Shown: in pieces, positions 2,749-3,730 of the stretch
Layout of the letters: each line of letters opens with the position of its first letter
Numbering within the stretch: the stretch's first letter is position 1
Assembly: GCA_964359525.1 (NCBI GenBank)
Contig: CAYHTH010000001.1
Location: 1 to 28,109 of the forward strand
Length of the DNA: 28,109 nt
Reading direction: 5' to 3'
Source of the DNA: an uncultured Methanosarcinales archaeon
GTDB taxonomy: Archaea > Nanobdellota > Nanobdellia > Woesearchaeales > GW2011-AR4
Notes under the pieces: generated by a model
What the model was told of the DNA's origin: nothing
Database searches by the model: none
The model's input: only the letters and a program-made list of their open reading frames with translations
Program-made: the position numbers and the translations under genes

Positions 2749-2958
2749 ATGACTGACAAACTGCTCCCATTGGCTGCGATGGAAAAGATTCTGAAGCAAG
2801 GCGGCGCAGAAAGGGTTTCTGACAAAGCCAAAGTCGCTTTGAAAAACGCAATCGAAGAAATTGCAAATGATATTTCTGTAAAAGCAATCCAGTTCGCGCA
2901 CCACGCAGGCAGAAAAACAATAAAGCCGGAAGATATTAAGCTGGCTGTGAAGGAATAG
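2749..2958 (+). CDS. Archaeal histone (HMf family)
   Basis: LPLAAMEKILK, AERVS, AHHAGRKTIKPEDIKLA histone-fold signature; 69 aa. Confidence 0.96.
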   Translation: MTDKLLPLAAMEKILKQGGAERVSDKAKVALKNAIEEIANDISVKAIQFAHHAGRKTIKPEDIKLAVKE

Positions 2959-2996
2959 ATTGAAAGTTTAAGTTCGTGATATTTCTACTTATTTAA

Positions 2997-3250
2997 TGGT
3001 GGCAAACACGCATTTTCTTGGTGAAAATGCTATTCGCAAAACAAAAATCAGAACTTCGTAACTGATTTTTGTTCTGCACTCAATTTGCCACCACGAAATC
3101 CTAACAACGTGGATGAAAACTGAGTGCAGAGGATTTTTCCTTACGAAGTCGGGAAAAATCCTTTGCGAATAGGGTTTTGACAGACAAAACCCGTGTTTGA
3201 ATCCAATACTGTTGGAATTTATTTTGAATTCAAAAATACAATCAAAACAT
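2997..3250. ncRNA. Highly structured intergenic element, candidate ncRNA or ssDNA-folding mobile element of unassigned family
   Basis: Perfect complementary pairs: 3003-3010/3192-3199, 3011-3017/3023-3029, 3030-3040/3162-3172, 3041-3051/3062-3072, 3073-3082/3121-3130, 3131-3140/3152-3161, 3173-3179/3185-3191; loop-loop 3053-3061/3141-3149; pseudoknot 2997-3006/3084-3093. The structure is certain; its nature is not. Confidence 0.6.
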
Positions 3251-3331
3251 ATTCTTTAAGCACAATCTTTATAAATCACTCAATTAAACCAAACCTAAAT
3301 TCGAAAACAAAAAAGTTCAGGTGACAATTAA

Positions 3332-3730
3332 ATGGCAGATACAAAGATGGTTGGTGCCAATCAGATTCTGAAAGGCAATTTTATACTCATGGGCGGCGTT
3401 GCATGCAAGGTTGTTGATGTTGAAATTTCAAAGCCCGGAAAGCACGGTCACTCCAAAGTCAGGATATCGGCAATGGGATTGGTTGACGAAAAGAAGCGAA
3501 TCGAGGTAATGCCAGGCCATGACAATGTTGAAATTCCTATAATTGAAAAAAGAAACGCCCAGGTCCTCTCCGTTCAGGGCGACATGGCAAATGTCATGGA
3601 CTCGGAAAATTACGAGACATTTGACATAAAGATTCCGGAAGAATTCAAAGGGCAGGTTAAGGACGGAATGTCCGTGATGTACTGGGTTATAATGAGCGAA
3701 CGAGTGATAAAACAGGTAAGAAGTGAGTAA
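3332..3730 (+). CDS. eif5a: Translation factor aIF5A
   Basis: SKPGKHGHSK hypusination motif; AGGTGA ribosome-binding site upstream; TTTATAAA at 3268-3275. Confidence 0.97.
   Translation: MADTKMVGANQILKGNFILMGGVACKVVDVEISKPGKHGHSKVRISAMGLVDEKKRIEVMPGHDNVEIPIIEKRNAQVLSVQGDMANVMDSENYETFDIKIPEEFKGQVKDGMSVMYWVIMSERVIKQVRSE

Follow-up and report, generated by a model that had tools for sequence, protein, structure and literature searches.

Repetitive extragenic palindromic (REP) sequences, bacterial interspersed mosaic elements (BIMEs) and REPINs are extragenic, dispersed and structure-forming, and they occur solo or as inverted doublets. Other short motifs are interspersed with them, compensatory change preserves their stems, and relatives differ in whether they carry them. 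In BIMEs, two types of palindromic unit, Y and Z, stand in fixed relative polarity. REPINs are inverted REP doublets which are moved by RAYT Y1 transposases. Here we describe a structured repeat which resembles these elements in all the features listed first and in the pairing of two unit types. It lies between the histone and eIF5A genes of an uncultured archaeon (NCBI assembly GCA_964359525.1, contig CAYHTH010000001.1); the whole stretch of 28,109 nucleotides (nt) that was analysed is called the window.

Two further groups of systems are close. MITE-type repeats (miniature inverted-repeat transposable elements) which act at the RNA level (Correia/NEMIS, ERIC/IRU, pneumococcal BOX and RUP) are likewise small, non-coding and intergenic, co-transcribable and stably folded. 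Their terminal inverted repeats may have a counterpart in the outer stem P0, present in about 39 of 83 units of the archaeal family. Sites processed as folded single-stranded DNA (ssDNA), such as integron attC, CTX-phi attP(+), the ends of IS200/IS605 and the T-shaped inverted terminal repeats (ITRs) of the adeno-associated virus (AAV) type, would share with it a function that resides in the fold of one DNA strand; both have branched or forked structures and a sequence which is free where pairing is kept. Mini-hairpins of the C-GNA-G type are known as very stable DNA motifs.

The archaeal element is real and is missing from the catalogues, but it does not represent a single RNA with a pair of four-way junctions. 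The region forms an imperfect palindrome of 200 nt in which one unit is present twice in inverted orientation, and its helices did not evolve independently of each other. It is a head-to-head dimer of a dispersed, structure-conserved Woesearchaeota repeat of ~95 nt, which we read, with a probability of about 0.6, as a BIME- or REPIN-like, structure-dependent accessory or mobile module. In the family, signs that a single-strand fold is under selection (covarying pairs, an asymmetry between the strands, conservation of the junctions) are combined with features of an accessory or mobile repeat: a patchy distribution, differing copy numbers, bursts, sites both filled and empty, nested mosaics, random orientation and the lack of a promoter.

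A search of the source genome with the region returned two partial copies on other contigs and a match of the region to itself in reverse complement. The units are three-way junctions whose parts follow one another in the order P1, J12, P2, J23, P3, J31 (coordinates in Table 1). P1 is a closing helix of 10 base pairs (bp), usually with a tandem G.A. The long arm P2 comprises an invariant UGCAGA/UUUGCG base with two G.U pairs, a variable A/U-tract stem of 10-11 bp and an AC-GNA-GU tip; its loop is G/A-N-A in ~90% of the members. P3 is a short hairpin of 8 bp whose loop accommodates insertions of 30-220 nt across the family. The junction strands UGAG (J12), AAUA (J23) and GU (J31) are nearly invariant. 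Folded in isolation, both units adopt the family consensus as their minimum free energy (MFE) structure, at -39.4 kcal/mol for the right unit (R) and -42.6 kcal/mol for the left unit (L). The outer stem P0 (e.g. AAAAATTCCAACAAC ... GTTGTTGGAATTTTT), which is similar to a terminal inverted repeat, is degenerate in unit R and absent in unit L.

Selection on the fold was assessed on alignment A2, which contains 74 members of the family, unit L among them. On the three-way junction 91.5% of the cells are paired versus 72.9% after shuffling, a percentage inflated by the choice of members, for which a filter on some P1 and P3 pairing was used. This filter does not inflate the counts of double changes in P2, and A-U/U-A and G-C/A-U exchanges are strongest in this unfiltered arm. 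Double compensatory changes affect 26 of 38 pairs (456 cells). The covariation score reaches 0.474, as compared with 0.148 in shuffles (none of 500 attains the observed value) and at most 0.16 when the partners are slid by 1-3 columns. Without a given structure, RNAalifold recovers the same three helices, and 24 of its 33 pairs are compensatory. Furthermore, J12 and J23 covary within the unit: UGAG occurs with AAUA in 64 members and CGAA with AGUA in seven.

The alignment also identifies the strand. Non-canonical cells are of the G.U type in 260 cases and of the A.C type in 14 (113 versus 14 when the two invariant wobbles are left aside). A double-stranded DNA site or a neutrally decaying symmetric palindrome would give a ratio of about 1:1, and thus one strand folds and is selected. 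This is the + strand for unit R and the - strand for unit L. The sense strand of a unit also folds more stably than the complement, by 5-6.5 kcal/mol.

These properties also sustain another explanation, according to which the units form a new class of functional structured RNA, i.e. a ribonucleoprotein scaffold, a processing signal or a self-cleaving ribozyme made from one strand. Such an RNA would be processed from longer transcripts or joined to 5′ partners such as a GC-rich module (M, described below), and it would be dispersed in the manner of archaeal C/D-box small RNA or tRNA genes and not by transposition. We consider this possible, if unlikely. The one-strand signature with its two invariant G.U pairs is in its favour, as are the near-invariance of the junction nucleotides while the helices vary and covary, and the RNA-like tandem G.A and GNA triloop. 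The junction variant CGAA/AGUA presumably resembles the loop-E/sarcin-ricin motif. A related and unlikely proposal is that the three-way junction defines a functional RNA class specific to DPANN archaea, self-processing or protein-recruiting, which would travel with modules M and H as a mosaic RNA cassette, the heterotypic dimer being its two-strand form.

The initial annotation had viewed positions 2997-3250 as a single, independently transcribed RNA with two perfect four-way junctions, a kissing loop and a pseudoknot. All the helices that it listed are present, and checking against the sequence showed every pair to be Watson-Crick. Complementarity over 9 nt links the loops ACTTCGTAA (3053-3061) and TTACGAAGT (3141-3149), and TGGTGGCAAA (2997-3006) likewise matches TTTGCCACCA (3084-3093) as its complement. 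RNAfold gives the double four-way junction as the MFE structure of the + strand at -90.7 kcal/mol, versus -43.3 +/- 4.6 kcal/mol on average for shuffled sequences (z -10.4; 0 of 200 as good). The - strand adopts an equivalent fold at -93.9 kcal/mol (z -11.3 against shuffles). The structure at 2997-3250 exceeds chance by far, so that the annotated strong structure is confirmed on both strands (z about -10), and the covariation in 74 relatives bears out that a fold is under selection. The element is also undescribed in Rfam, as had been supposed: Rfam 15, whose families include RNase P, SRP, 5S, tRNA, HEARO, hammerhead, twister, pistol and hatchet, gives no match at gathering score in the entire window, and at E<=10 the segment 2900-3340 yields noise only, with a best sub-threshold score of 22 bits against a cut-off of 55. 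On ten related loci, Rfam found only tRNAs, elsewhere in the loci. ARAGORN detected no tRNA, and no published description of the family was found in full-text literature searches.

The fold that is selected is a different one. The conserved entity is the three-way junction of ~95 nt, which also occurs solo, and not an RNA of ~200-250 nt. Four-way junctions, kissing loops and pseudoknot arise because two such units sit inverted with their 5′ ends facing. The helices which build the four-way junctions correspond to J12 plus the P2 base, J23, and J31 plus P1 segments, each paired with its inverted twin. The complementarity of the kissing loops exists, but it is the same conserved P2 loop and tip read on opposite strands. 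Similarly, the pairing 2997-3006/3084-3093 assigned to a pseudoknot switch closes unit L as its helix P1. The absence of G-U pairs holds for the inter-unit fold, whereas within each unit the two invariant G.U pairs and the tandem G.A mark one strand.

Thirteen distinct adjacent pairs of units were found, all inverted with facing 5′ ends and gaps of 9-43 nt. Each combines one unit with a GA-type P1 and one with a GC-type P1 (GGCGGCAAAU/GUUUGCCGCC). In 12 of the 13 the partners differ in junction type, as a result of which 2-3 mismatches fall in each of the inner and middle inter-unit helices. Perfect inter-unit helices, and hence the perfect four-way junctions of the initial annotation, are confined to the dimer of the window. 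On the + strand its dimer fold reaches -88.3 kcal/mol versus -78.5 kcal/mol for two separate units, a gain of ~10 kcal/mol. Selection does not maintain the dimer fold, which is a chance property of the window copy. At this locus a histone read-through transcript may adopt the double four-way junction. The heterotypic composition of the dimers probably avoids a long perfect palindrome.

These comparisons bear on the single RNA of ~200-250 nt that would be transcribed from the TATA-like box which precedes the complement of unit L, and whose fold would combine the two four-way junctions with a kissing loop and a switch-like pseudoknot. That box and the eIF5A promoter are both present as annotated. 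Thermodynamically, this fold is the best that the + strand can adopt (-88 to -91 kcal/mol), the box lies ~31 nt before the first paired base (Table 1) and is kept as AAAGTTCAAG in the orthologous locus of the congener G007, and a T-rich tract lies downstream. However, the box is not family-wide. A TATA-like motif is found 22-45 nt upstream of the sense 5′ end in one of 77 units. For the antisense side the count is 13 of 82, a background frequency expected from local motif density; independent transcription from ~2997 receives no family-level support. In addition to the mismatched inter-unit helices, solo units are in the majority, and the G.U asymmetry places the selection of the left unit on the - strand, of which the + strand is the complement. 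This explanation is highly improbable and is largely refuted by the comparative data.

The distribution of the family was examined with sequence patterns and with a covariance model built from the 74 members. With two mismatches allowed, the strict pattern TGAGTGCAGA-N(20-50)-TTTGCGAATAG is present in 19 of the 36 congeners, each of which has 1-7 copies, and a reversed-pattern control gave none. The exact pattern (gap 25-50) matched 80 stretches in a species-representative genome collection. They are nearly all titled Candidatus Woesearchaeota, Nanoarchaeota or Nanoarchaeia, with one Aenigmatarchaeota and several 'Methanosarcinales' records from a binning pipeline. The covariance model finds 94 units in 76 of these 80 loci. 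The loci labelled as Flavipsychrobacter, Christensenella, a cyanobacterium and Oscillospiraceae contain no unit by the model and are therefore chance pattern matches. Exactly four units are detected in the source genome (G000; 1.09 Mb in 197 contigs, 37% G+C, 80.6% complete); the solo ones are C58:2333-2426 and C69:2302-2437, and solo units are the majority form across loci. In a scan of the whole order, 12 of 150 other genomes carry 1-6 copies each, and these represent 12 different genera among 143 other genera. Copy number varies from 0 to ~10 among congeners. The distribution across the order is patchy.

Some host labels deserve mention. One locus with a covariance model match (L062, CAYZGS01) is titled Saccharibacteria, and several binning-pipeline records named 'uncultured Methanosarcinales' (e.g. 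L045, L053, L085) carry the element in synteny with Woesearchaeota loci. Mis-binning or mislabelling of these contigs is likely.

The histone-eIF5A adjacency is kept in the genus and was present in 26 of 30 congener loci that were retrieved. In ~20 congeners the spacer is 67-175 nt long without the insert, and the eIF5A promoter block (AAGCAYAATCTTTATAAAT) nearly abuts the histone stop codon. The source genome has ~294 extra bases at this position (2959-3252). G007 carries an orthologous two-unit insert, in which a hairpin module is added in P3 and the left unit has other P2 and junction types; the 3′ flank of unit R (3205-3227) is 95% identical to this locus. The G027 spacer contains one unit on the same strand as L, together with the ~114-nt module M. 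In G029, the closest relative (96% eIF5A identity), and in G062 and G001, a reverse open reading frame (ORF) of 123 amino acids (aa) is found instead. The family is thus polymorphic for insertion at the orthologous histone-eIF5A site. Dispersed copies and empty sites in relatives, which the initial annotation had named in advance as the mark of a repeat-type element, were both found. The 123-aa ORF (loci L120, L121 and L131) is conserved and ends in ...WLAAFHQQ followed by TPFK or IQLK.

Elsewhere, units neighbour housekeeping genes, such as those for V-ATPase subunits C and F, an AAA-ATPase and GatD, cytidylate kinase and FKBP, glycine cleavage and lipoyl synthase, RFC and L10e. The downstream gene is on the strand of the unit in 36 cases and on the opposite one in 35, i.e. 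without orientation bias. The C58 unit (L002 1502-1595) is located within a V-type ATPase operon; it lies on the coding strand in the gap between the genes for subunits C (AC39) and F, 47 nt 5′ of the F start codon, and L062 is arranged alike.

The position of the window dimer could suggest a 3′-end element which serves the host, such as a bidirectional terminator or an mRNA stabiliser comparable to REP/BIME sequences in E. coli operons. The dimer follows the histone stop codon closely, precedes the eIF5A promoter and presents a sense unit to transcripts from both directions. Moreover, many outer stems of the family end in T4-T7, with an A-tract on the opposite side, and 47 of 83 units have T>=4 within 40 nt 3′. 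We judge this role improbable since ~20 congeners do without the insert, units that follow an upstream gene are not preferentially in sense orientation, and one unit sits inside the V-ATPase operon. Archaeal termination requires oligo-T and not hairpins, which also weighs against it.

The copies show signs of amplification and of mosaic assembly. The nearest relative of 56 of 79 units is in another assembly. In three assemblies (the DATDOM, JAHJCS and WJJV records) the copies are mutually 91-98% identical, which indicates recent local amplification, and the similarity of these burst copies stops exactly at the outer stem P0. Structured 5′ partners are common: the complement of another unit (24 of 83), a GTGAGCGAG/CTCGCTCAC hairpin, or module M. 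None of the 5′ partner modules is in Rfam.

Module M (...GGCACCCCGUAAGGGAC..CGCCUCGUCUCGCCAUGGCUGGAUUUUUU) has a closing stem of 13 bp and an MFE of -40.3 kcal/mol. It was observed directly 5′ of the units in the G027 spacer (L123) and in L029, L071, L074, L095, L099 and L102, a linkage seen in both marine and groundwater subfamilies. The hairpin module of ~40 nt (GTGAGCGAG...CTCGCTCAC type) is present in P3 loops (L011, L013, L024, L075, L098 and C69:2302-2437, whose insertion measures 40-odd nt) and between the facing 5′ ends of dimers (L015, L065). It looks like a second small repeat nesting inside the first. In the 3′ flanks, just outside many units and on both outer sides of some dimers, a conserved motif GTATAYTTWA-N(6-9)-TTKACTTWACA was noticed (L015 and L069, on both sides; L027, L029, L060, L098), which could be promoter-like or a separate repeat module. 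In assembly WJJV01 (L043, L058, L066, L082, L108, L112, L117), units stand within arrays, with tandem CTCCTAGCCTCTCCG...CGGAGAGGTGGC hairpins upstream and extra unit 3′ ends only (GACCGTGTACGAATCC plus P0) downstream. In L016, L028, L033, L040 and L094, units with P0 are nested in a larger inverted repeat (TTTCTCGAAGATAA ... TTATCATCGAGAAA). The metallophosphoesterase gene which flanks them is rare in the genus, so that the whole region may be a larger composite element.

The genomic context divides the evidence on a functional RNA class. Cross-species synteny, the mostly diverged state of the paralogues within a genome and the linkage to module M in both subfamilies speak for it. On the other hand, a promoter-like motif lies upstream on the sense strand in only one of 77 units, the 5′ ends in dimers are too close (9-43 nt) to leave room for promoters, and orientation to neighbouring genes is random. 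The patchy occurrence in the order, the variable copy number among congeners and the lack of a match to any Rfam ribozyme core point in the same direction.

The accessory or mobile module is our preferred reading. The family would behave as a non-autonomous, structure-dependent module, like the mosaics of bacterial BIMEs and REPINs. A trans-acting factor would recognise the single-stranded fold, either as ssDNA in replication or transposition or as RNA in read-through transcripts. We lean slightly towards a folded single strand which is recognised during propagation. The fallback proposed in the initial annotation, an ssDNA-folding non-autonomous mobile element, is still viable in this light.

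Compared with the described systems, the family has distinct features. A unit is a 95-nt three-way junction with conserved junctions and non-Watson-Crick motifs, whereas a REP is a hairpin of 20-40 nt with a GTAG foot. A genome carries 1-10 copies, as opposed to hundreds of REPs, no linkage of the units to Y1/RAYT genes was found, and the host is a DPANN archaeon. Unlike MITE-type repeats, the family is accompanied by no target-site duplication and no related autonomous insertion sequence that could be found. It differs from the terminal inverted repeats of transposases acting on double-stranded DNA by its conserved junctions, covarying stems and 8-18-fold G.U/A.C asymmetry. In contrast to integron attC, there are no cassette arrays, R/L boxes or adjacent IntI, and units are located singly or paired between housekeeping genes. 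Lastly, in contrast to IS200/IS605 ends and AAV ITRs, the units are not linked to TnpA and do not flank a replicon.

Several observations weigh against a mobile module. Some units are syntenic across species (V-ATPase C-F, GatD/AAA, and histone-eIF5A in G000, G007 and G027), and the copies are old paralogues in most genomes; both facts also fit an RNA gene family kept by the host. Target-site duplications were not seen at the boundaries of burst copies or at P0 flanks, and 'empty' P0 palindromes are rare. The invariant G.U pairs, the tandem G.A and the AGUA/GAA-like junction variant are RNA-like. No RNA run is listed for the element; in the one metatranscriptome with sequence words in common with the wider stretch, a contig of 196 nt and depth 2 covers a portion of a related copy and extends 140 nt past it, possibly by DNA carry-over. 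Moreover, no mobilising enzyme was identified among the transposase, reverse transcriptase, TnpB and recombinase candidates searched. Reverse transcriptase (RVT_1) and TnpB were not found in the 80%-complete source genome. The Y1 transposase family PF01797 does not track the units: 11 of the 20 congeners with units have it, as do 10 of the 17 without, with the incompleteness of metagenome-assembled genomes weakening the absences, and none of 30 Y1 loci contains a unit (covariance model E<=1).

The source genome encodes a single IS200-like Y1 transposase (C7:1877-2227, - strand; a 155-aa ORF with PF01797 at 61 bits), and only a degenerate unit-like fragment lies near it, ~170 nt away. Hairpins of the GCATAGC...GCTATGC type precede this gene (2228-2440). 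No recurrent transposase ORF occurs within 2.5 kb of units. XerA-type recombinase genes are located 150-700 nt downstream of units at a few loci; these look orthologous, so the apparent enrichment near units is not independent.

Several candidate routes and identities were rejected. Among the routes, a RAYT/IS200 link was dismissed for lack of genome co-occurrence and of units at the 30 Y1 loci, and insertion into pre-existing palindromes because empty P0 palindromes are rare. Retro-mobility was set aside as RVT_1 is missing from the source genome and 5′-truncated copies are not in excess. A TnpB/omega-RNA system is contradicted by the missing TnpB and by a unit which is self-closed, without a free guide. 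An integrated element with the unit as attachment (att) site was discarded since no repeated att segment exists within 17-20 kb of XerA-like recombinases, and a viral origin since viral contigs gave no exact-pattern match. As to identities, a tRNA, split tRNA or T-loop formed from GTTCGAATCC is excluded by the covariation of this segment with the 5′ strand as helix P1 and by the negative ARAGORN result. A hammerhead-like core (CUGA...GAA) was rejected because equivalents of G8/A9 are missing, CUGA does not occur in type-B units and the hammerhead covariance models of Rfam give no match; the hammerhead core CUGANGA / GAAA / UH is not matched by the junction strands UGAG / AAUA / GU, or CGAA / AGUA in seven members. 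Finally, reading of the flanks gave no 3-4-3 motif of a bulge-helix-bulge intron at P0/P1.

Table 1. Features of the histone-eIF5A region (positions in the window)
Feature	Position	Strand	Details
Archaeal histone gene	2749..2958	+	69 aa; upstream neighbour; from the ORF list
Inserted segment	2959..3252		~294 nt; histone stop to eIF5A promoter block TTCTTTAAGCACAATCTTTATAAAT; orthologous spacers aligned by eye
TATA-like box	2963-2972	+	AAAGTTTAAG; ~31 nt 5′ of the unit L complement and first paired base
Unit L	2998..3092	-	95 nt; three-way junction; covariance model R1 101.5 bits, E 1.3e-24
Unit L, P1	3092-3083 with 3007-2998	-	GC-type; GGUGGCAAAU/GUUUGCCACC
Unit L, J12 and J23		-	UGAG; AAUA
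Unit L, P2		-	Long hairpin, ACAAAAAUCAG stem, GAA tip
Unit L, P3		-	Hairpin GCAUUUUC-ACCAA-GAAAAUGC
Inter-unit spacer	3093..3110		18 nt; between the facing 5′ ends of units L and R
Unit R, P0 5′ strand	3096-3108		Degenerate, AAUCCUAACAAC; other members AAAAAUUCCAACAAC ... GUUGUUGGAAUUUUU
Unit R	3111..3204	+	94 nt; three-way junction; covariance model R1 99.8 bits, E 4.1e-24
Unit R, P1	3111-3120 with 3195-3204	+	GGAUGAAAAC/GUUUGAAUCC; tandem G.A at 3115-3116/3199-3200
Unit R, J12	3121-3124	+	UGAG
Unit R, P2	3125-3144 with 3148-3167	+	GAA triloop 3145-3147
Unit R, J23	3168-3171	+	AAUA
Unit R, P3	3172-3179 with 3185-3192	+	
Unit R, J31	3193-3194	+	GU
Unit R, 3′ flank	3205..3227	+	Degenerate P0 3′ strand ACUGUUGGAAUUU, then T-rich tract TTTATTTTG
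T-rich tract after unit R	3215-3226		
eIF5A promoter	3267-3276		CTTTATAAAT
eIF5A gene	3332..3730	+	132 aa; downstream neighbour
Outer-junction helices, initial annotation	3003-3010/3192-3199, 3011-3017/3023-3029, 3030-3040/3162-3172, 3173-3179/3185-3191		
Inner-junction helices, initial annotation	3030-3040/3162-3172, 3041-3051/3062-3072, 3073-3082/3121-3130, 3131-3140/3152-3161		

The genomes of DPANN archaea are tiny and contain little non-coding DNA, and their non-coding elements are almost undescribed. The covariance model can be used to annotate these elements and to flag mis-binned Woesearchaeota contigs. If the family acts as RNA, an uncultivated lineage would possess a new class of structured RNA. 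If the repeat is recognised as folded ssDNA, biology of the REP/BIME type would reach into the archaea, there with a much more complex fold, and an enzyme which recognises the repeat would be implied.

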